Assembly (NCBI RefSeq): GCF_055900595.2
Contig: NZ_CM148325.1
Strand: one strand, 5' to 3'
DNA: 64,000 nucleotides
Shown: positions 1-12,758 of the stretch, piece by piece
How positions within the stretch are numbered: position 1 is the stretch's first letter
How the letters are laid out: every line of letters starts with the position of its first letter
Position numbers and translations under genes: made by a program
Notes under the pieces: generated by a model
What the model was told of the DNA's origin: nothing
Seen by the model: the letters and a program-made list of their open reading frames with translations, nothing else
Database searches by the model: none

Positions 1-675
1 GGAACCGTCATGCTGCTTCGTCTCATATTTCACGAGATAACTGGCTCTGTTCCGGGCTTTCTGCAGCGCTTCCACATCACCACGCTTGATCCAGAGAACA
101 GCGGCTTCACCCGGCTTTTTTTCTGAAGCCTTCCTGGTATCAGAACATCCACCCGACAAAGGCGTGTCATCGGAAGAAGGGCGAGCATCAGACGATGCTG
201 GTTTACGGGAAGGCGTCCACCTGGAAAAATGGACCAGGCCATCGCCTTGCCAGGCCTCAAGATGCAGGGCGCTGCACCATGCCTCCAGGATCATCGTCGC
301 CAGCGAAGATGGTTCGCTGAAATCCCCTGGCGAGCACCAGGTATCTTTGTTGAGCAGCAATATCACGTGATAATGTTTCCTGCCTTTTTCCTTGCCAAAC
401 TCCCGACACCAGAAATAACGCAGAGTGGTTGCACGCACACGCTTGTTGGCACGTCGTTTTTTCCGCTGGTAAGCCTGGATTTTGGCTTTCAGGGATTCGA
501 AAAAACGAGAAATCACCGCTGAATCCGGATCGGGATCCATGATGGTGACAGGCATATACTCAGGGAAACGTAAATCCACCCGGATTAACGAGACGGCACG
601 GTGCTGCGACAGGGCACTGTCGAGAAGGCTGTCAAAACGGGATAACCAGTAAGCATTGTGTATTGGTTGATTCAT
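1..675 (-). CDS. Island protein, YagK/YfjJ-like (inovirus Gp2-like family); partial, start codon at 675, continues beyond window start
   Basis: Reverse-strand reading frame open from ATG at 673-675 to position 1 without stop (about 225 codons, MNQPIHNAYWLSRFDSLLDS...); absent from ORF track presumably because no stop lies in the window. Family assignment from memory of CP4-type island proteins, not verified. Confidence 0.55.
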   Translation of the reverse strand, partial: MNQPIHNAYWLSRFDSLLDSALSQHRAVSLIRVDLRFPEYMPVTIMDPDPDSAVISRFFESLKAKIQAYQRKKRRANKRVRATTLRYFWCREFGKEKGRKHYHVILLLNKDTWCSPGDFSEPSSLATMILEAWCSALHLEAWQGDGLVHFSRWTPSRKPASSDARPSSDDTPLSGGCSDTRKASEKKPGEAAVLWIKRGDVEALQKARNRASYLVKYETKQHDGS

Positions 676-2252
676 GATGAGAGATCTCCGTTGATTTGGA
701 TTGACTTCACATCATTAATCACCGCGGTAAAACTTTACGGCATCATGTCATTAAGCAATGCTACAACTCTCTGATTAAGAGTGATTGAAACGGAACAAAC
801 CATCCCGGAACGAAAAGATAATCCTGCACACAGCAGCAAAACACGCAACAACAGCATGAATGGATTTAAAAACGACATGGACGACGAGAAAAGCCTGAAG
901 GGAAAAGGATCCACAGAACATTCGAACAAAACACCAGAAACGCAACCAGAACGCTTCCTGGCAATGCAAATCAACAACAACGCCAAAACCTACAGCTTAA
1001 TCACACAACTCAATCACGAATGCGAATGACACGTTTAAAACCTGTTTACAGATAACGCCGTAACACGATCATCCCCATCACCATCAGAATCGATTTTCTC
1101 ATCCCGAAAATGTTACGTTTCACTACGCACCATAAAAACGGTTAACCATCGATAACGTAAACCTTATCTGAATCAAAAACACCAAAACCGTTCATCACAC
1201 TTTCGCAATGCAAGAAGAAACCTCATGACAAAAAGAATGACCTTACACGGAAAAGAAAACGTCAGGAATCGTTAATGCCTCAATCTGATTGTTATCAAAA
1301 CATCCAGAAAGTCGTTTAACAGAATCGTCGTAAGCACATCGAAAAGAACGTCAGATCACCTCAGGAAAGTTCGGGTTGATTTAGCGTAAAGATACTTTTC
1401 TCAGCTTAACGTCGAAACACAAACCAAAAACCACAAACAACCAAAGCTCAGGAAAGGTTAAACGTCACATCAGTAAAATCGAATAGCAGATTGATTGCTT
1501 AAACAGGAAGGATTGTTTTACAGCAGCATTAAACTGATTTAGTTAACGTAAAATCAGAACTGACAGGTTTACTAACTTGGATGTGTATCAGTTCAAAAAT
1601 GTGTACAGCAATGCGTAATGAAACACATTTAAAGGAGATTAATGGGAAAGTGTGTAAATGCGTAAACAGGCACTAATGAATCACTGGAGGAATACATACA
1701 AAACGACTTAATGAAAACATAAAAGGACCTAATGGAAAAGGTGTATATAATACCATATCCGACATTCTCAACATCTTAAGACATCCATGCAGACTGAATG
1801 TTGGTTTCAGTTTTTCACGGTAAGCATGAATCTTTTCTGTTCAAAAGCAGAGCAGATTTACTCTGGAATTATTTTTCTTACTCCGTATTCTGTACAGCAA
1901 AAACTTGTGCTAACTTTACAGCAAACCATCATAATCAGCGTCTGTAGTCCCATCGCTTTACCCCATGAAAGTGAATCCATATGATGTGAGAGAGATAAGT
2001 CATCGTATCCGGTAAACACTGCTTACTATAACATAAGATCATTCAGTCAGTTTTATCTCTGAACTGACGATTATGGCATGCTCATTTATATGGCTCACAG
2101 AGGAGTGTTATTATCCGTAAGCTTTAATCATCAAATCACATGACCATACCAAACTGGCGCTATATCAGCTCATTTGACGCTCATTCCCTTTAGATTTCTT
2201 TATGTGTTTTTTGTTGATAATTAAAATGTAATATAAATTTAATATTTTCAAA

Positions 2253-3476
2253 TCATAAACACCATTTAAAACCATCATCCTGAACATCATACAACAATAT
2301 ATTTTTACTAAAGCATGAATTGTATACTTCTATTAATTCAGGAAAATTATCAGGATTCACCTTTAAATTCAACTGAATGTTACACTTAATTTCACTCAGC
2401 AGTTCTTCATGCGTGGATTTTATTATCCCTTTATCATAATCTATAAATACACACATGTTTTTCATGAATTCAAACCCTTTTCCTGTATACAGTTTGATGA
2501 ATGCCACAAGAGCAAACATTTCAAGATGCAGCCATAATGCCACGTGAGTTTTTCGCAAAGTATAAAAAATTGAATTCGCCACTTTTTTACTTATTGCTCT
2601 TTTGTACTGTGAGTGCGCCAGATTCAGTAGTGGCAATTCTCTCTCGATAAATGAAAGTGAAAAAGACGGGTAAATTGATGTCGGAAATATTTCAGGTCTT
2701 ATGATATTTTCGATTTCCACCATAAATCTATCCATAGAACGAAAATCATTTTCTTTTTTTATTCTGGTATAGAGACCGCCTTTATTCCTTACTGCGACTT
2801 TTTTTCGTGCTATCCCCCCCAACATTTCCTCTAATTGTTTATTTATCTTCGTATCATTAAATACAACCATTCTTCTTATCATCCTGGGAAGGATGATAAT
2901 ATCAGAGCTTGAATCACTTGAACGGCAATTATTATTGATCCATGCAACTTCAAGTTGAAGTATCGGAACATTAAATTCTCTGGGGTTAATAACTCTCTGA
3001 TATTGTTTTTTGTATGCGTTTTCATTAAGATATTCTCTGCTGTAGAGAAACTTATAGCAATATAATCTGACAATATCCTTTATGTAAGATTTAAATGAGT
3101 CACCTGTAACAGATATATTTTTTCTTCTCAGTAACTCCTGTGTATTGAGCCATTCCCGTGACCGGAGTACTCCATTATGAAGACTTTTTCTTACTTGCTT
3201 TGAATTGCGCAATTGATGTAATATTTTTGCGTCCTCAACAATTCTCTTTCCCGTTTGATTTCTTGCAGCATCTATTACTCTGTCAAATATCTCCCGGTCC
3301 AGACTTTTGTCATATTTACTGATTATACGACAAATATTCCTGACCCGACGGTTCTCTTTATTTCGTTTCCATAACTGATAATGATCATCACATAACCTCA
3401 GGGCATTTGCCTCATCAAATTCTGAAACAGGATTGCTGCATTTTTTATTCCGACAGATACCTTTGTTTTTAGCCAT
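2253..3476 (-). CDS. Hypothetical protein, 407 aa, strongly AT-rich, Lys/Asn/Ile-rich; N-terminal Cys-x4-Cys...Cys-x2-His motif; no family recognised
   Basis: Long uninterrupted ORF in ORF track; spot counts of lines give roughly 22-37% GC versus about 50% in flanking core genes; sits between YfjJ-like and YfjP-like island genes. Confidence 0.75.
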   Translation of the reverse strand: MAKNKGICRNKKCSNPVSEFDEANALRLCDDHYQLWKRNKENRRVRNICRIISKYDKSLDREIFDRVIDAARNQTGKRIVEDAKILHQLRNSKQVRKSLHNGVLRSREWLNTQELLRRKNISVTGDSFKSYIKDIVRLYCYKFLYSREYLNENAYKKQYQRVINPREFNVPILQLEVAWINNNCRSSDSSSDIIILPRMIRRMVVFNDTKINKQLEEMLGGIARKKVAVRNKGGLYTRIKKENDFRSMDRFMVEIENIIRPEIFPTSIYPSFSLSFIERELPLLNLAHSQYKRAISKKVANSIFYTLRKTHVALWLHLEMFALVAFIKLYTGKGFEFMKNMCVFIDYDKGIIKSTHEELLSEIKCNIQLNLKVNPDNFPELIEVYNSCFSKNILLYDVQDDGFKWCL

Positions 3477-3576
3477 ACTCTTCTTCCCGTCAATGGAAAA
3501 ATTTTCACGTCCATATTACCTGACTGAGAGGCCGGATTAATGTGATCCGGTTCAGTGAAATCAACAGGATAACGGT

Positions 3577-4461
3577 ATGTCATTCAGCCATTCTTCCCTC
3601 TCCGCACACGTAAAGTCACATCTGACCTTTCTTCCTGAAGAAATTCGCCAGAAAATCCTTGAACATCTTCGCAGCGTCATTCAGTACGAACCCGTTATTG
3701 GCATTATGGGTAAATCCGGTGCCGGAAAAAGCAGCCTGTGCAATGCCATTTTTCAGTCCCGTGTCTGCGCCACGCATCCGCTGAACGGCTGCACCCGTCA
3801 GGCTCATCGTCTTACCTTTCAGCCCGGTGAACGAAGAATGACGCTGGTCGATCTGCCCGGCACTGGCGAAACACCACAGCATGATCAGGAATACCGGGCA
3901 CTTTACAGTCAGTTACTGCCCGAACTGGATCTGATTATCTGGATCCTGCGGGCTGATGAACGTGCGTATGCTGCCGACATCGCCATGCATCAGTTTTTAC
4001 TGAATGAAGGTGCCGATCCCTCGCGTTTTCTGTTTGTTCTCAGCCATGCCGATCGCATCCACCCGGCTGAAGAATGGAACAACCAGAGCAGCACGCCATC
4101 CCGTCAGCAGGAACTCTCACTGGCGACGGTGACAGCCCGGGTGGCAACCCTGTTCCCTTCATCATTTCCGGTACTCCCCATAGCCGCTCCTGCCGGCTGG
4201 AATCTTCCGGCATTTGTGTCTCTGATGATCCACGCCCTGCCACCACAGGCAACCAGCGCGGTTTATTCGCATATCCGGAATGAAAAGCGCACTGCGCAGG
4301 ATCAGCAACACGCACAGCAGGCTTTTGGTGACGCCATCGGCCAGAGTTTTGACGCTGCCATTGCCCGGTTCAGCTTTCCGGCCTGGATGCTGCAGCTTCT
4401 GCGCAAAGCCCGTGATCGCATTATCCGCCTGCTGATCACACTGTGGGATCGCCTGTTCTGA
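3577..4461 (+). CDS. Island GTPase, YfjP/YkfA/YeeP-like (P-loop GTP-binding protein)
   Basis: 294-aa ORF with Walker A motif GIMGKSGAGKSS; sequence resembles K-12 prophage GTPases YfjP/YkfA. Confidence 0.85.
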   Translation: MSFSHSSLSAHVKSHLTFLPEEIRQKILEHLRSVIQYEPVIGIMGKSGAGKSSLCNAIFQSRVCATHPLNGCTRQAHRLTFQPGERRMTLVDLPGTGETPQHDQEYRALYSQLLPELDLIIWILRADERAYAADIAMHQFLLNEGADPSRFLFVLSHADRIHPAEEWNNQSSTPSRQQELSLATVTARVATLFPSSFPVLPIAAPAGWNLPAFVSLMIHALPPQATSAVYSHIRNEKRTAQDQQHAQQAFGDAIGQSFDAAIARFSFPAWMLQLLRKARDRIIRLLITLWDRLF

Positions 4462-4646
4462 ATGTCCCCGCTTTTTGACCGGCCCCGGCGATAACCAGGA
4501 AACGCATTTCCGGTTGCGTCACCACAATGCTGAAGGGCTTCGGTAAACCCTCATTCATTTCATCCATCAGGCCGCGTCTTCTCCGTGAGACGCGGCTTTT
4601 TCATTGATTACGTCATTCAGTCTTAACCACTGATAAGGAGCAAAGT

Positions 4647-5465
4647 ATGCGATTAGCCAGTCGTTTTGGTTATGCGAACCAGATACGCCGTGACCGTCCG
4701 CTGACCCGTGAAGAGCTGATGCACCATGTGCCCGGGATTTTCGGGGAAGATAAACACACCTCCCGGAGCCGGAACTATACATACATCCCCACCATCACCG
4801 TGCTGGAAAGCCTGCAGCGGGAAGGCTTTCAGCCATTCTTCGCCTGCCAGACCCGCGTACGTGACCCGGGCCGCCGGGGGTATACCAAACACATGCTGCG
4901 TCTGCGCCGTGACGGGGAGATAAACGGACAACATGTCCCTGAAATTATTCTGCTCAACTCTCATGACGGTACCTCCAGCTACCAGATGCTGCCGGGTTAC
5001 TTCAGGTTCGTCTGCCAGAACGGATGCGTCTGCGGTCAGTCTCTGGGGGAAGTGCGTGTTCCGCACCGGGGAAATGTGGTGGACAGAGTCATTGAAGGGG
5101 CTTACGAGGTGGTGGGCGTGTTTGACCGGATAGAGGAGAAGCGTGATGCCATGCAGTCGCTGGTCCTGCCGCCACCGGCACGCCAGGCGCTGGCACAGGC
5201 GGCACTGACTTACCGTTATGGTGACGAACATCAGCCCGTCACCACCGCCGACATTCTGACACCACGACGCCGGGAGGATTACGGTAAGGACCTGTGGAGT
5301 GCTTATCAGACCATCCAGGAGAATATGCTGAAAGGCGGGATTTCCGGTCGCAGTGCAAAAGGAAAACGTATCCATACCCGGGCCATTCACAGCATTGATA
5401 CCGATATAAAACTCAACCGCGCATTGTGGGTGATGGCAGAAACGCTGCTTGAGAGCATGCGCTGA
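4647..5465 (+). CDS. DUF932-family island protein, YfjQ-like
   Basis: 272-aa ORF; position after the GTPase gene and similarity to YfjQ as recalled. Confidence 0.75.
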   Translation: MRLASRFGYANQIRRDRPLTREELMHHVPGIFGEDKHTSRSRNYTYIPTITVLESLQREGFQPFFACQTRVRDPGRRGYTKHMLRLRRDGEINGQHVPEIILLNSHDGTSSYQMLPGYFRFVCQNGCVCGQSLGEVRVPHRGNVVDRVIEGAYEVVGVFDRIEEKRDAMQSLVLPPPARQALAQAALTYRYGDEHQPVTTADILTPRRREDYGKDLWSAYQTIQENMLKGGISGRSAKGKRIHTRAIHSIDTDIKLNRALWVMAETLLESMR

Positions 5466-5546
5466 TGCCGTTTCCCTGAGTGAGGGAATCATTCAGCTTT
5501 CGTTCCTGAAAAACACACATTTATTTGTTATTTAAGGCGTTATCTC

Positions 5547-6026
5547 ATGAAAACCGTTTCTCAGAATACCCCCACAATTTATTCAGCTACAACACCAGAG
5601 AATAATCCGCCTCAGTTGGTTGCCAGCCTCGTCCCTGATGAACAGCGCATCAGCTTCTGGCCGCAGCATTTTGGCCTCATTCCACAGTGGGTGACCCTGG
5701 AGCCCCGTGTCTTCGGCTGGATGGACCGTCTGTGCGAAGACTACTGCGGTGGTATCTGGAATCTGTACACCCTGAACAACGGCGGGGCATTTATGGCCCC
5801 CGAACCGGATGATGATGATGACGAAACATGGGTACTGTTCAATGCCATGAACGGTAACCGCGCTGAAATGAGCCCGGAAGCCGCCGGCATTGCTGCCTGT
5901 CTGATGACGTACAGTCATCACGCCTGCCGTACGGAGTGTTATGCCATGACGGTTCATTATTACCGTCTGCGGGATTACGCCCTGCAGCATCCGGAATGCA
6001 GCGCCATTATGCGCATCATTGACTGA
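5547..6026 (+). CDS. Antirestriction protein, KlcA/ArdB-like (YfjX/YafX family)
   Basis: 159-aa ORF with acidic DDDDDE tract; conserved position preceding RadC-like gene in CP4-type islands. Confidence 0.75.
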   Translation: MKTVSQNTPTIYSATTPENNPPQLVASLVPDEQRISFWPQHFGLIPQWVTLEPRVFGWMDRLCEDYCGGIWNLYTLNNGGAFMAPEPDDDDDETWVLFNAMNGNRAEMSPEAAGIAACLMTYSHHACRTECYAMTVHYYRLRDYALQHPECSAIMRIID

Positions 6027-6041
6027 AAGGGGGCCGGAACA

Positions 6042-6518
6042 ATGCAACAGATTTCCTTTCTGCCCGGAGAAATGACAACCAGAGAGCGCAGCCTCATTCA
6101 GCGGGCCCTGAAAGCCCTGGACCGCCATCTTCATGAACCCGGCGTGGTCTTCACCTCCACGCATGCGGCACGGGAATGGCTGATTCTGAACATGGCGGGA
6201 CTGGAGCGTGAAGAATTCCGGGTGCTGTATCTGAACAACCAGAATCAGCTGATTGCCGGTGAAACCCTCTTCACCGGCACCATCAACCGCACGGAAGTCC
6301 ATCCCCGGGAAGTGATTAAACGCGCCCTGTACCACAATGCCGCTGCCGTGGTGCTGGCACACAATCACCCGTCCGGTGAAGTCACACCCAGTAAGGCAGA
6401 CCGCCTTATTACGGAACGTCTGGTACAGGCGCTGGCCCTGGTGGATATCCGGGTGCCGGACCATCTGATAGTCGGTGGCAGCCAGGTTTTCTCCTTTGCC
6501 GAACATGGTCTGCTTTAA
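6042..6518 (+). CDS. RadC-like JAB/JAMM domain protein (YfjY/YeeS/YkfG family)
   Basis: 158-aa ORF containing JAMM metal-binding motif HNHPSG...D (VVLAHNHPSGEVTPSKADRLITERL). Confidence 0.85.
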   Translation: MQQISFLPGEMTTRERSLIQRALKALDRHLHEPGVVFTSTHAAREWLILNMAGLEREEFRVLYLNNQNQLIAGETLFTGTINRTEVHPREVIKRALYHNAAAVVLAHNHPSGEVTPSKADRLITERLVQALALVDIRVPDHLIVGGSQVFSFAEHGLL

Positions 6519-6580
6519 CCCGTCACAACCACATCACACCTGTTTTCACTTTTATCTTCTGTCTTCAGAGGTATCCCATT

Positions 6581-6802
6581 ATGAAAATCATCACCCGTGG
6601 TGAAGCCATGCGTATTCACCAACAGCATCCTGCATCCCGTCTTTTTCCGTTCTGTACCGGCAAATACCGCTGGCACGGCAGCACTGAAACGTATACCGGT
6701 CGTGAAGTGCAGGATATTCCCGGTGTGCTGGCTGTGTTTGCAGAACGTCGTAAGGACAGTTTTGGCCCGTATGTCCGGCTGATGAGCGTCACCCTGAACT
6801 GA
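6581..6802 (+). CDS. DUF987 protein (YeeT/YpjJ/YkfH family)
   Basis: 73-aa ORF in conserved island position after RadC-like gene. Confidence 0.7.
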   Translation: MKIITRGEAMRIHQQHPASRLFPFCTGKYRWHGSTETYTGREVQDIPGVLAVFAERRKDSFGPYVRLMSVTLN

Positions 6803-6816
6803 GTCAGGGCATTCTG

Positions 6817-7447
6817 ATGAGCAGAATTATCACCATCACAGTGTATACGCTGGATGAACTTTCCTGCCCGGCACGGGAAAAAGCCCGCGACGGGTACCGT
6901 CAGCATCATGCTGACAGCAACTGGTATGAAAACGTGTATGAAGACTTCAGGGAGGTCTGTGGCATTTTCGGAATTGACCTCCGCCAGCGCGTTTTCCGGC
7001 TCAGCAACGGCAGGTTTATGGAGGAGCCGAGCATCTGGTTCAGCGGATTCTGCAGCCAGGGACGGAGCCTGTTTTGAAGGACGCTGGCACTGGCAGTCAG
7101 CAACAACCAGGAGAGTCCGGGAGTATGCCCCGCAGAACCGTGAGCTTCATCGTATCGCGGATGCCCTGCAGGCGGTGCAGAAACGTAACTTCTGGCAACT
7201 GCAGGCTGAAATCCACCACCGGGGACGTTACTGCCATCCGTTATCACTGTTACCCGGAACAGTCCGACTGGTCAGGCTATGACAGCCGATGCGGAAGCCG
7301 CTGTCAGCGAAGCCCTGCGCGACCTGGCCTTCTGGCTGTACCGTCAACTGGAAAACGAGTACGACCAGATGACCTCAGACGCCGCTGTGGATGAGGCCAT
7401 TCTCATCAATGCATACATCTTCACCGAAACCGGTCAGCGCACCGGCT
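6817..7447 (+). pseudogene. Island gene apparently disrupted by frameshifts (about 210 codons spread over three reading frames)
   Basis: Contiguous overlapping ORFs 6817-7077 (frame 1), 6854-7282 (frame 2), 7074-7394 (frame 3) and a frame-1 tail 7279-7447; pattern typical of a frameshifted gene. Identity not recognised. Confidence 0.35.
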
Positions 7448-7498
7448 GACCTGTCATCGTTAAACCATTCTTAACCACTTTTCAGAGAGGATTTTATC

Positions 7499-7867
7499 GT
7501 GTCAGACACACTCTCCGGGATAACTCATCCCGACGACAATCACGACCGCCCCTGGTGGGGGCTTCCCTGCACAGTGAGGCCCTGTTTTGGCGCCCGTCTG
7601 GTGCAGGAGGGTAACCGCCTGCATTACCTTGCCGACCGCGCCGGCATCAGAGGCCGGTTCAGCGATGCGGATGCATACCATCTGGACCAGGCCTTTCCGC
7701 TGCTGATGAAACAACTGGAACTCATGCTCACCAGCGGTGAACTGAATCCCCGCCATCAGCATACCGTCACGCTGTATGCAAAAGGGCTGACCTGCGAAGC
7801 CGACACCCTCGGCAGTTGTGGTTACGTTTATCTGGCTGTTTATCCGACGCCCGAAACGAAAAAGTAA
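7499..7867 (+). CDS. Type IV antitoxin, CbeA/YfjZ/YafW family
   Basis: 122-aa ORF MSDTLSGITHPDDNHDRPWWGLPCTV... closely resembles K-12 CbeA (YeeU)/YfjZ. Confidence 0.85.
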   Translation: MSDTLSGITHPDDNHDRPWWGLPCTVRPCFGARLVQEGNRLHYLADRAGIRGRFSDADAYHLDQAFPLLMKQLELMLTSGELNPRHQHTVTLYAKGLTCEADTLGSCGYVYLAVYPTPETKK

Positions 7868-7957
7868 ACCACCGGAATAACCTTCTGCTCCGGCCAGGTG
7901 TTTTCACCACGCCACTCTCCCCATAATTTAATCTCTCATATCAGGAAAATCTTCAGT

Positions 7958-8368
7958 ATGAAATTATTACCCGACACACATGTACGGGAGGCATCGTGCT
8001 GCCCGTCTCCCGTCACCATCTGGCAGACACTGCTCATCCGTCTGCTGGACCAGCACTATGGCCTCACACTGAATGACACACCGTTCGCTGATGAACGTGT
8101 GATTGAGCAGCATATTGAGGCCGGCATTTCACTGTGCGATGCGGTGAACTTTCTCGTTGAAAAATACGCACTGGTACGTACCGACCAGCCGGGATTCAGC
8201 GCAGGAGCCCCGTCGCAGTTAATCAACAGCATCGATATTCTCCGGGCCCGCCGGGCAACAGGCCTGATGACACGTAATAACTACAGAATGGTAAATAACA
8301 TTACCCTGGGTAGCATCCGGGGGCGAAACGATGAAACTTTCCCTGACGCTGGAAGCCGACAGCATTAA
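7958..8368 (+). CDS. Type IV toxin, CbtA/YpjF/YkfI family (cytoskeleton-inhibiting toxin)
   Basis: ORF from ATG at 7958 (MKLLPD...[60 protein letters not shown]...) matches CbtA-like toxins; immediately downstream of antitoxin. C-terminal extent uncertain. Confidence 0.8.
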
Positions 8369-8753
8369 CGTGCAGGCACTGAACATGGGGCGCATTGTCG
8401 TTGACATTGATGGTGTAAATCTCGCTGAACTGATTAACAAGGTCGCTGAATACGGTTATTCACTCCGCGTGGTGGATGAACGTGACGCTACCGAAACACC
8501 GGCGACTTCTGCCAGCTCTCATCAGTTGCCGGAAGACAATACAGTGATACAGAGCGTGATGCCATTAACCACTGAAACAGCGCTGGATATCCTCATTGCG
8601 TGGCTGCAGGACAATATCGACTGCGGGTCCGGAATTATTTTCGACAACGATGAGGATAAAACGGATTCGGCAGCACTGCTGCCCTGTATTGAACAGGCCA
8701 GGGAGGATATCCGTACCCTGCACCAACTGCAACTTCTGCACCAGAACCGGTGA
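8331..8753 (+). CDS. YeeW-like island protein
   Basis: 140-aa ORF following the toxin gene as in CP4-44/CP4-57 modules; assignment by position and recalled similarity. Confidence 0.55.
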
Positions 8754-8837
8754 ATCTCACTCACCAGACTTCATTCTCCTGACGCCAGCCTGAACAGAGC
8801 TGGCGTTTTCGTTTATAAACAGAAAGGAAACCCCATA

Positions 8838-9623
8838 ATGTCATATATCACAATCCCCCACCCGAACGCGGTCAACGGACATACAGCCGTTATCTGTTCC
8901 ACAAGTATCAGACACATCCTGGCTGTACGAAAGAGTACACTGCTGCAAATCGACACGCTTATCCGGCAACTGACAGAAATCTCAGCACTGACGGAAAGTA
9001 TTGGCGGTAAAGCCGCCCCGGACTGGGCGATGAAACAGAATTTTCGCTGTGGTTGCTGGCTGATGGAGAAACCAGAAACAGCAATGAAAGCCATTACCCG
9101 GAATCTTGACCGCGAAATCTGGCGTAACCTGATGCAGCGTTCCGGGATGCTTTCCTTAATGGATGCACAGGCACGTGATACATGGTACAGGTCACTGGAA
9201 TATGATAATTTTCCGGAAATCAGTGAAGCGAACATTCTGAGCACATTTGAACAACTGCACCAGAATAAGGATGAAGTGTTTGAGCGGGGGGTGATCAACC
9301 TCTTCAAAGGGCTGAGCTGGGATTACAAAACCAACTCACCCTGTAAATTTGGCAGTAAAATTATCGTCAACAATCTGGTGAGGTGGGACCAGTGGGGATT
9401 TCATCTTATCAGTGGAATGCAGGCAGATCGCCTGGCTGACCTGGAAAGAATGTTGCATCTGCTCAGCGGTAAACCGATCCCCGACAACCGGGGAATATCA
9501 CCATTAATCTGGATGACCACATACAGTCCGTTCAGGGTAAAGGACGCTATGAAGATGAGATGTTCATCATTAAATACTTTAAGAAGGGAGCTGCACACAT
9601 CACTTTCAAAAGGCTGGAGCTGA
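8838..9623 (+). CDS. Hypothetical island-terminal protein, 261 aa
   Basis: Uninterrupted ORF with plausible RBS context; last gene before the tRNA-fragment repeat. Family not recognised. Confidence 0.6.
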   Translation: MSYITIPHPNAVNGHTAVICSTSIRHILAVRKSTLLQIDTLIRQLTEISALTESIGGKAAPDWAMKQNFRCGCWLMEKPETAMKAITRNLDREIWRNLMQRSGMLSLMDAQARDTWYRSLEYDNFPEISEANILSTFEQLHQNKDEVFERGVINLFKGLSWDYKTNSPCKFGSKIIVNNLVRWDQWGFHLISGMQADRLADLERMLHLLSGKPIPDNRGISPLIWMTTYSPFRVKDAMKMRCSSLNTLRRELHTSLSKGWS

Positions 9624-9789
9624 TTGACAGAATTAACGATATAATAGCCAGGCACTTTCCTTCTGTGCTCTCAGCCTGACCCCGAGTTTGATTCCCTTTC
9701 GATATCAAAAGGGACTGCGGGTACAAAAGAGGGTACATCTTTCACCAAACCAAACAAAATAAACCAATATCAACATGATAGAAGCATTC

Positions 9790-9811
9790 TTCGATTCCGA
9801 GTCCGGCACCA
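9790..9811 (+). repeat. tRNA-Phe 3'-end fragment (attR-type direct repeat of island integration site)
   Basis: TTCGATTCCGAGTCCGGCACCA matches the 3' end of E. coli tRNA-Phe (TTCGATTCCGAGTCCGGGCACCA) with one G missing; upstream sequence does not continue as tRNA. Confidence 0.7.
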
Positions 9812-9822
9812 AATTCATATAA

Positions 9823-9848
9823 ACGGACCTCCACGGAGGTCCGTTTTT
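9823..9848 (+). terminator. Rho-independent terminator (native pheU terminator)
   Basis: Perfect inverted repeat ACGGACCTCC / GGAGGTCCGT followed by TTTTT. Confidence 0.75.
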
Positions 9849-10442
9849 CGTTTCAGGACGCCATGTGATTTAAGCGTTCTGCCTTCAAATCATTTCTAAC
9901 AATCTCAACCAAATTTTCCCTAATCGCCAGCATGTTACGGGTATACCCCAGCTCTGGGAAATTTATCCCTAAGCTATGAATGACTCTCACGAAATGTCGT
10001 GCGGCTGCGTGATGCAGTTGAAAATCAAATGATGTCATCAAGAGCTTAACGGTATCGTTGCCGATGACATATATAAAGCACAACCTCGGGCAGAACGCCG
10101 ACTGATGAGATTTTCTGAATGAGAACAAAGAGTAATGTCTCAGTTCGTTTGCTCATGCAAAGACTAATAATCCATGAAAATAGTAAGTGCTCTGAGAAAT
10201 TTTCCATGGATTATTTTCTGAACATTTTTCTTTGGCAAAGATGATGAATTTTGATGATAAGGAATATTACTTCTGGTTCTCAGTAAACTCCTTTCGTAAT
10301 ACTATGTAATCAAGAAGTTTATGGCGGGTAAAAATAACGTCTTACATTCACCAACAATATGTAAATAAACCCATCTATAGATGGTAAAAATAGGTCATGG
10401 CAATTATCATTGAACCATTCCCTTTTCGAATGAGTTTCTATT

Positions 10443-11152
10443 ATGCAACAACCTGTAGTTCGCGTTGGCGAATGGCTTGTTACTCCGTCCATAAACCAAA
10501 TTAGCCGCAATGGGCGTCAACTTACCCTTGAGCCGAGATTAATCGATCTTCTGGTTTTCTTTGCTCAACACAGTGGCGAAGTACTTAGCAGGGATGAACT
10601 TATCGATAATGTCTGGAAGAGAAGTATTGTCACCAATCACGTTGTGACGCAGAGTATCTCAGAACTACGTAAGTCATTAAAAGATAATGATGAAGATAGT
10701 CCTGTCTATATCGCTACTGTACCAAAGCGCGGCTATAAATTAATGGTGCCGGTTATCTGGTACAGCGAAGAAGAGGGAGAGGAAATAATGCTATCTTCGC
10801 CTCCCCCTATACCAGAGGCGGTTCCTGACACAGATTCTCCCTCCCAAAGTCTTAACATTCAAAACACCGCAACACCACCTGAACAATCCCCAGTTAAAAG
10901 CAAACGATTCACTACCTTTTGGGTATGGTTTTTTTTCCTGTTGTCGTTAGGTATCTGTGTAGCACTGGTAGCGTTTTCAAGTCTTGATACACGTCTTCCT
11001 ATGAGCAAATCGCGTATTTTGCTCAATCCACGCGATATTGACATTAATATGGTAAATAAAAGTTGTAACAGCTGGAGTTCCCCGTATCAGCTCTCTTACG
11101 CGATAGGCGTGGGTGATTTGGTGGCGACATCACTTAACACCTTCTCCACCTT
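10443..11152 (+). pseudogene. cadC: cadC 5' fragment (DNA-binding domain and transmembrane segment) truncated by IS1 insertion
   Basis: ORF MQQPVVRVGEWLVTPSINQISRNGRQLTLEPRLIDLL... equals CadC N-terminus; reading frame runs into IS1 and ends 6 codons later (VMLPTY-stop at 11174). Confidence 0.9.
11144..11152. repeat. IS1 target-site duplication, left copy (CTCCACCTT)
   Basis: Identical 9-bp sequence immediately flanks both IS1 ends. Confidence 0.85.
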
Positions 11153-11207
11153 GGTGATGCTGCCAACTTACTGATTTAGTGTATGATGGTGTTTTTGAGG
11201 TGCTCCA

Positions 11208-11483
11208 GTGGCTTCTGTTTCTATCAGCTGTCCCTCCTGTTCAGCTACTGACGGGGTGGTGCGTAACGGCAAAAGCACCGCCGGACATCAGCGCTATCTC
11301 TGCTCTCACTGCCGTAAAACATGGCAACTGCAGTTCACTTACACCGCTTCTCAACCCGGTACGCACCAGAAAATCATTGATATGGCCATGAATGGCGTTG
11401 GATGCCGGGCAACTGCCCGCATTATGGGCGTTGGCCTCAACACGATTTTACGTCACTTAAAAAACTCAGGCCGCAGTCGGTAA
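11208..11483 (+). CDS. insA: IS1 InsA (transposition repressor / N-terminal part of InsAB' transposase)
   Basis: 91-aa [94 protein letters not shown]. Confidence 0.95.
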
Positions 11484-11905
11484 CCTCGCGCATACAGCCG
11501 GGCAGTGACGTCATCGTCTGTGCGGAAATGGACGAACAGTGGGGCTATGTCGGGGCTAAATCGCGCCAGCGCTGGCTGTTTTACGCGTATGACAGGCTCC
11601 GGAAGACGGTTGTTGCGCACGTATTCGGTGAACGCACTATGGCGACGCTGGGGCGTCTTATGAGCCTGCTGTCACCCTTTGACGTGGTGATATGGATGAC
11701 GGATGGCTGGCCGCTGTATGAATCCCGCCTGAAGGGAAAGCTGCACGTAATCAGCAAGCGATATACGCAGCGAATTGAGCGGCATAACCTGAATCTGAGG
11801 CAGCACCTGGCACGGCTGGGACGGAAGTCGCTGTCGTTCTCAAAATCGGTGGAGCTGCATGACAAAGTCATCGGGCATTATCTGAACATAAAACACTATC
11901 AATAA
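11402..11905 (+). CDS. insB: IS1 InsB (C-terminal part of InsAB' transposase)
   Basis: 167-aa ORF matching IS1 InsB (…[33 protein letters not shown]…). Confidence 0.95.
11457..11465 (+). promoter_or_regulatory. IS1 programmed -1 ribosomal frameshift site (A6C motif TTAAAAAAC)
   Basis: Sequence TTAAAAAAC at the insA/insB overlap, the known site producing InsAB' transposase. Confidence 0.75.
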
Positions 11906-11920
11906 GTTGGAGTCATTACC

Positions 11921-11929
11921 CTCCACCTT
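11921..11929. repeat. IS1 target-site duplication, right copy (CTCCACCTT)
   Basis: Identical to 11144-11152. Confidence 0.85.
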
Positions 11930-12758
11930 TATGGTGCATGACAAAATCAACTACAACATTGATGAACCGAGCAGTTCCGGTAAAACATTATCTATTGCGT
12001 TTGTTAATCAGCGCCAATACCGTGCTCAACAATGCTTTATGTCGGTAAAATTGGTAGACAATGCAGATGGTTCAACCATGCTGGATAAACGTTATGTCAT
12101 CACTAACGGTAATCAGCTGGCGATTCAAAATGATTTACTGGAGAGTTTATCAAAAGCGTTAAACCAACCGTGGCCACAACGAATGCAGGAGATGCTCCAG
12201 CAAATTTTGCCTCATCGTGGTGCGTTATTAACTAATTTTTATCAGGCACATGATTATTTACTGCATGGCGATGATAAATCATTGAACCGTGCCAGTGAAT
12301 TACTAGGTGAGATTGTTCAATCATCCCCCGAATTTACCTACGCGAGAGCAGAAAAAGCATTAGTTGATATCGTGCGCCATTCTCAACATCCTTTAGATGA
12401 AAAACAATTAGCAGCACTGAATACAGAAATAGATAACATTGTTACACTGCCGGAATTGAACAACCTGTCCATTATATATCAAATAAAAGCGGTCAGTGCT
12501 CTGGTAAAAGGTAAAACAGATGAGTCTTACCAGGCGATAAATACTGGCATTGATCTTGAAATGTCCTGGCTAAATTATGTGTTGCTTGGCAAGGTTTATG
12601 AAATGAAGGGGATGAACCGGGAAGCAGCTGATGCATATCTCACCGCCTTTAATTTACGCCCAGGGGCAAACACCCTTTACTGGATTGAAAATGGTATATT
12701 CCAGACTTCTGTTCCTTATGTTGTACCTTATCTCGACAAATTTCTCGCCTCAGAATAA
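11921..12758 (+). pseudogene. cadC: cadC 3' fragment (periplasmic sensor domain) separated from its 5' part by IS1
   Basis: Frame reading STFMVHDKINYNIDEPSSSGKTLSIAFVNQRQYRAQQCF... to stop at 12758 matches the CadC periplasmic domain. Confidence 0.9.

Follow-up and report, generated by a model that had tools for sequence, protein, structure and literature searches.

Does a toxin gene that has lost its native end, close to the edge of a genomic island, still encode a toxin? The question is raised by two adjacent open reading frames in the window, the 64,000-nucleotide stretch of contig NZ_CM148325.1 (assembly GCF_055900595.2) analysed here. A sequence-only reading had likened them to the YeeU/YeeV and YfjZ/YpjF pairs of E. 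coli K-12, and profile, pairwise and context comparisons all agree with that likeness. By homology and gene order, the pair is a CbeA/CbtA (YeeU/YeeV, 'type IV') toxin-antitoxin module of E. coli, an ordinary one that has been catalogued before; for its family and architecture the sequence evidence is overwhelming. The family is well known, the exact proteins are already named in RefSeq and UniProt, the frameshift in the toxin gene is already flagged by PGAP, the annotation pipeline of NCBI, and nothing at the locus is new in kind. What is added here is an explanation of the long toxin tail, the reality and recombination of the allele that encodes it, and the exact island junction. These results matter little beyond correct annotation.

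Both frames, the antitoxin-like one of 122 residues and the toxin-like one, are present on the plus strand where they had been placed (Table 1). The antitoxin matches the Pfam family CbeA_antitoxin (PF06154) with an E-value of 7.8e-55 and 184.1 bits against a cut-off of 27, and is 92% identical to K-12 CbeA, 66% to YfjZ and 63% to YafW. Its sequence matches the YeeU structures 2h28 and 2inw in the PDB (E about 1e-78) and also those of YfjZ, 2ea9 and 2jn7. It is RefSeq protein WP_039023579.1, as annotated in identical genomes, and the exact sequence is found on at least 997 public contigs. The toxin covers the complete CbtA_toxin profile (PF06755, positions 1-112 of 112; E = 1.6e-59, 199.2 bits against a cut-off of 25). 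Alignment with CbtA, YpjF and YkfI, which the earlier reading had put forward as a check, gives identities of 83%, 63% and 58%, respectively. The two genes share one strand, the antitoxin gene directly preceding the toxin gene with 90 nt between them, and the arrangement is colinear with cbeA-cbtA of K-12; the order antitoxin then toxin, also claimed before, is that of the K-12 modules, and in the DNA alignment the ribosome-binding regions of both genes are those of cbeA and cbtA. Several complete E. coli chromosomes match positions 7400-8800 at 100% identity, and in them PGAP names the products 'type IV toxin-antitoxin system YeeU family antitoxin' and 'TA system toxin CbtA family protein'. 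NCBIfam gave no model for the toxin, the antitoxin or their neighbours, and none of the PADLOC defence models matched the pair.

Table 1. Features of the toxin-antitoxin locus and of the right-hand end of the island (positions in the window).
Feature	Position	Strand	Description	Basis
DUF932 gene	4647-5465		5' of the pair	Pfam
Antirestriction gene	5547-6026		5' of the pair	Pfam
RadC gene	6042-6518		5' of the pair	Pfam
DUF987 gene	6581-6802		5' of the pair	Pfam
DUF8835-like pseudogene	6817-7449	+	'antitoxin of toxin-antitoxin stability system' / DUF8835, 'frameshifted'	PGAP
Antitoxin gene, cbeA/yeeU-type	7499-7867	+	intact; GTG start, 122 aa	ORF, Pfam
Antitoxin-toxin spacer	7868-7957	+	90 nt; toxin ribosome-binding site ATCAGGAAAATCTTCAGTATG identical to K-12
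Toxin ORF, cbtA/yeeV-type	7958-8368	+	ATG start; 411 nt with stop, 136 aa	ORF, Pfam
1-bp deletion site	8311-8312	+	GGTAAG to GGTAG	alignments with K-12 and EC958
ATGA junction	8331-8334	+	ancestral toxin TGA (8332-8334) overlaps DUF5983 ATG (8331-8333)	sequence, restored translation, PGAP coordinates
DUF5983_N-DUF957 fusion ORF	8331-8753	+	140 aa; partial DUF5983 and DUF957 in PGAP	Pfam (DUF5983_N only), PGAP
DUF4942 gene	8838-9623	+	last gene of the island; profile 1-130 of 190 only; 'frameshifted' in PGAP	Pfam, PGAP
Right junction attR, pheU 3' remnant	9790-9811	+	last 22 nt of the tRNA-Phe gene pheU, one G missing

The toxin frame had been given as 137 residues long, one too many, as its 411 nt include the stop codon. 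The suspicion that its C-terminus might differ from references was well founded: it is unlike that of every reference, and the cause is a lesion, not natural variation. One A is gone at 8312 and the frame shifts at codon 119, leaving residues 1-118 native and replacing the last seven (KHPGAKR) by an 18-residue frameshift tail. The long tail thus goes back to the loss of one base close to the 3' end of the gene. When one A is put back, a 125-residue protein ending in NITLGKHPGAKR is obtained, with its TGA at the ATGA junction. As read, the stop codon has moved from this junction to 8366-8368, inside the next gene, and the toxin frame shares 38 nt with the fusion frame that follows, an overlap that had been noticed before. 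An uninterrupted frame with the native C-terminus at the ATGA junction, as is characteristic of the family, is absent. PGAP attaches the note 'frameshifted' to the toxin gene in three genomes; over 7400-8800, one of them is identical to the window and the other two are at least 99.3% identical. The lesion lies beyond the Pfam domain and takes off only seven residues past it; the tail that replaces them is probably disordered.

Comparison with known systems places these features in context. The K-12 CbeA/CbtA module (CP4-44) consists of the same two Pfam families, with the same order, strand, spacer and ribosome-binding sequences, and Phe65 (F65) of the toxin is kept; CP4-44 and the window also have in common RadC and DUF987 genes upstream and a DUF5983 gene (yeeW) downstream. 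The window toxin differs from K-12 CbtA by divergence at the N-terminal residues 3-27, with Cys15 for Arg15, and by its length, 136 residues through the 1-bp deletion against 124. Furthermore, CP4-44 has no DUF8835-like gene, whereas the window has a broken one between DUF987 and the antitoxin, and the island of the window is located at pheU/cadC and not at the CP4-44 site. YfjZ/YpjF (CP4-57) and YafW/YkfI (CP4-6) share families and architecture with the window pair, and their toxins have Cys15 as well, but they are only 58-66% identical to it. The YfjZ and YafW antitoxins do not have the 14-residue N-terminal extension of the window antitoxin, and the YpjF and YkfI toxins are shorter (109 and 113 residues), ending before the position of the lesion. 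EC0585 (WP_039023579.1 / WP_000771610.1) has the identical antitoxin with an intact toxin, and the toxin of EC958 (WP_001285598.1 / WP_000854689.1) differs at five of 118 residues. Unlike the window toxin, those of EC958 and EC0585 are 124-125 residues long and end at the ATGA junction, and in EC958 the DUF8835-like, DUF5983, DUF957 and DUF4942 genes are all intact, which is not the case here. Multi-copy CbtA loci have been documented in E. coli lineages (PMC10790755).

Single-base indels are the commonest assembly error, and the extra length could be imagined to be such an error in a gene that really encodes a normal 125-residue toxin. We consider this very improbable. The base was lost from a run of two (AA) and not from a long homopolymer, and a 45-mer spanning the deletion is present in 44 independently assembled genomes, a good number of them from poultry, among the 5,426 complete genomes of E. 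coli; in five genomes it occurs twice. The exact 136-residue toxin turns up in 1,076 indexed blocks of public assemblies and is public as 'TA system toxin CbtA family protein' (UniProt A0A0U4BLW2), while the exact repaired 125-residue sequence was not found among 15 billion proteins. The 136-residue toxin gene stands in at least three chromosomal contexts, next to cadC, next to an ABC-transporter operon and next to a short-chain dehydrogenase gene. In a fourth, near ulaD, a diverged allele (95.4% identical) bears the same deletion in its 3' half. Sequencing error was rejected on the recurrence of the deletion in the 44 genomes, the AA site and the allele at the second locus. Judged by these comparisons, the deletion allele is real and inherited and no assembly artefact.

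Its pattern of identities characterizes the toxin alleles as recombination mosaics. Codons 1-81 show zero nucleotide differences from the intact EC0585 toxin gene, and in a comparison over 7958-8311 the 5' half is free of nucleotide differences from an intact toxin gene at the setC locus; from codon 56 to the end, there are zero nucleotide differences from the allele at the ulaD locus. It follows from this mosaic pattern that recombination between islands has transferred the 3' half that carries the deletion. With mosaic alleles, divergence since the deletion is not measurable and dN/dS among the frameshift alleles is uninformative. No further indel was found in 43 toxin copies at 95-100% identity, the alignments all being exactly 411 nt long. 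In strain 135 (CP080260.1; about 3042-3410 of locus sequence L013), a second identical toxin copy adjoins an antitoxin gene with a 1-bp deletion in an AAAAGGG run; this antitoxin lesion could be real decay or an assembly error.

The pair had been described as standing at an island terminus, and the junction found here bears this out. From gene content and the boundary of backbone homology, it sits in the right-hand block of a CP4-like island that has inserted at pheU, next to cadC; 1.4 kb separate it from the right junction. The order of the block (DUF932, antirestriction, RadC, DUF987, ..., cbeA, cbtA, DUF5983, DUF957, DUF4942) is shared with CP4-44, CP4-57 and CP4-6 of K-12 and with EC958. 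In the dicD-pheU-yjdQ-cadC alignment, homology to the K-12 backbone begins exactly at TTCGATTCCGAGTCCGGCACCA, the pheU remnant, which is followed by the pheU terminator (9821-9846), a yjdQ integrase remnant and then cadC from 10443. The pheU 3' end was missed by a pattern search allowing up to three mismatches because of its 1-nt deletion, and was found by eye and by alignment. A tRNA scan found no complete tRNA within the window, so only the right-hand 9.8 kb or so of the pheU island is inside it; the complete pheU gene and the integrase of the island must be located to the left of the window.

Comparison with EC958 also indicates that this end of the island is decaying. The DUF8835-like gene, 214 codons long in its intact EC958 version, is broken into three open reading frame fragments by deletions of 2 bp (at 7059) and 10 bp (at 7242); Pfam, NCBIfam and PADLOC gave nothing for the intact protein. 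Downstream of the toxin, about 280 bp of the EC958 sequence are missing (around 8486-8534), which has joined the DUF5983 N-terminal domain in frame to a DUF957/ANF00264-type small protein. The EC958 protein keeps both its N- and C-terminal DUF5983 domains, the latter of which is lost here; the exact 140-residue fusion protein occurs on 168 public contigs. In the DUF4942 gene, a 1-bp deletion at 9493 results in a protein of 261 residues instead of the 281 in EC958; related genomes have this gene intact (280 residues in one of them) or cut further. With EC958 as the reference, six genes lie between 6817 and the junction, and the only ones free of lesions are the antitoxin and the DUF957-type region, the latter now fused. 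The damaged neighbours make selection on the island end look relaxed.

For fusions of this kind in DUF5983/ANF00264 genes, a 2026 paper speculated that programmed frameshifting is behind them (PMC13294457). The fusion in the window is accounted for by the plain deletion of about 280 bp, which on the alignment is the simpler explanation. Transposed to the toxin gene, programmed ribosomal frameshifting might bypass the frame change, in which case toxins with the native end and with the extension would both be made. This is scarcely credible, and the neighbouring fusion is itself explained by a deletion. Programmed frameshifting in the toxin was rejected: reading of the sequence at or after 8312 reveals no slippery heptamer of the X XXY YYZ type, and about 99% of the E. 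coli genomes with the family encode the toxin in one frame.

What the lesion removes can be judged against the conservation and the predicted structure of the toxin. In an alignment of 29 diverse members, conservation stops around residue 103 (RARRATGL) and the lengths of homologues vary beyond it. In the alignment with CbtA, YpjF and YkfI, Phe65 is an invariant column, and residue 15 of the window toxin is Cys, not Arg. The AlphaFold2 model (mean pLDDT of 80) contains confident helices at residues 18-34, 46-55, 59-70 and 91-101, a weaker last helix at 106-121 and a low-confidence tail from residue 122. A PDB sequence search gave no solved relative of the toxin, and a Foldseek search of the model against the PDB returned nothing below E = 1; the toxin fold thus has no solved relative.

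In K-12, the toxin attaches to FtsZ at the H6/H7 loop and to MreB at the flat face and blocks the assembly of both (PMC5624674, PMC5371832), and F65 is required for FtsZ binding by CbtA, YpjF and YkfI (PMC5624674). By analogy, the window toxin, in which this residue is kept, would bind the H6/H7 loop of FtsZ and block its polymerisation; perhaps it would also bind MreB, and its overproduction would lead to lemon-shaped or filamentous cells. Targeting of MreB is uncertain: the R15C mutation abolishes MreB binding of K-12 CbtA, yet C15 is the native residue of YpjF and YkfI, both of which affect elongation all the same, and C15R is without effect on them (PMC5624674). The Cys at this position bears on CbtA proper, not on membership of the CbtA/CbeA family. 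The antitoxin would counteract the toxin by binding and bundling FtsZ and MreB filaments, not by binding the toxin itself. This type IV hallmark is known only for K-12 CbeA, as summarised in two papers (PMC5371832, PMC5624674). In K-12, antitoxins protect across the three systems, and the operon lacks autoregulation (PMC5624674, PMC5371832). We infer targets, toxicity and mode of neutralisation for the window pair from this literature on the K-12 homologues.

The window toxin is probably still active, because the conserved core is not reached by the frameshift and because YpjF and YkfI, which are toxic (PMC5371832, PMC5624674), end even earlier. The region of the tail looks dispensable in view of these shorter toxic homologues, the end of conservation around residue 103 and the weak end of the AlphaFold model, and also of His6-CbtA-GFP, which remains toxic with a large fusion at its C-terminus and makes cells lemon-shaped (PMC5624674). 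However, C-terminally His-tagged YpjF reportedly did not inhibit growth (work of Brown and Shaw, as discussed in PMC5371832), which means that C-terminal changes may matter.

That report is also compatible with a different reading, which we regard as quite possible though not the favoured one: the toxin gene may be a dead or crippled pseudogene and the module a remnant, its antitoxin being kept either because decay is recent or as a protection against paralogous CbtA-family toxins from other islands within one and the same genome. The 'frameshifted' label given by PGAP to the toxin gene agrees with this, as does the damage to the DUF8835-like gene upstream and to the DUF5983 and DUF4942 genes downstream. 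Paralogous toxins would be at hand, E. coli genomes holding a median of two to three such loci, and each of the three K-12 antitoxins neutralises all three toxins (PMC5371832). Some genomes that carry the present toxin allele (ACN002, XB2, GPEC389 and E41), however, are without any other such locus and still have the antitoxin intact. The identical toxin beside a frameshifted antitoxin in strain 135 would be harmless as a dead protein, but it could also be tolerated through other antitoxin copies that protect in trans. A dead toxin is also less readily reconciled with a lesion that costs so little past the Pfam domain, with the toxicity of the shorter natural homologues and of the C-terminal GFP fusion (PMC5624674), and with the lack of a second lesion in any of the 43 copies. 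We therefore retain an active toxin as the preferred reading, in which a pseudogene flagged by PGAP may still encode a toxin that targets the cytoskeleton. If the allele were shown to be active, this would be experimental confirmation that the CbtA C-terminus is dispensable.

It is unlikely, but conceivable, that the 136-residue allele is not decaying at all and represents a functional variant spread by inter-island recombination, the hydrophilic tail of which might alter stability or the balance between FtsZ and MreB. If true, read-through of the ATGA junction would end translational coupling to DUF5983 and rewire the end of the operon. For annotation, it is relevant that intact and frameshifted alleles are counted together when CbtA copy numbers are surveyed across E. 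coli lineages. The locus also marks the right end of the pheU island by cadC, with a gradient of decay in which the antitoxin alone is untouched.

Some further observations concern the surroundings of the pair. A promoter scan found no sigma-70-like site 5' of the antitoxin gene or in the spacer; 6400-9900 contains just one such site, at 8812-8839, and shuffled sequences contain more. An Rfam search of positions 1-12000 gave nothing at the gathering threshold, leaving the spacer between the two genes without an Rfam family. Towards the left edge of the window, a 407-residue open reading frame on the minus strand (2253-3476) has no Pfam or PADLOC family match, and is followed on the plus strand (3577-4461) by a gene for a YeeP-like GTPase (MMR_HSR1) with a weak match to the PADLOC LeoBC model (E = 3.8e-7). 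On the other side of the junction, the yjdQ-like integrase remnant before cadC (10010-10169) contains 16 nt that are absent from K-12.
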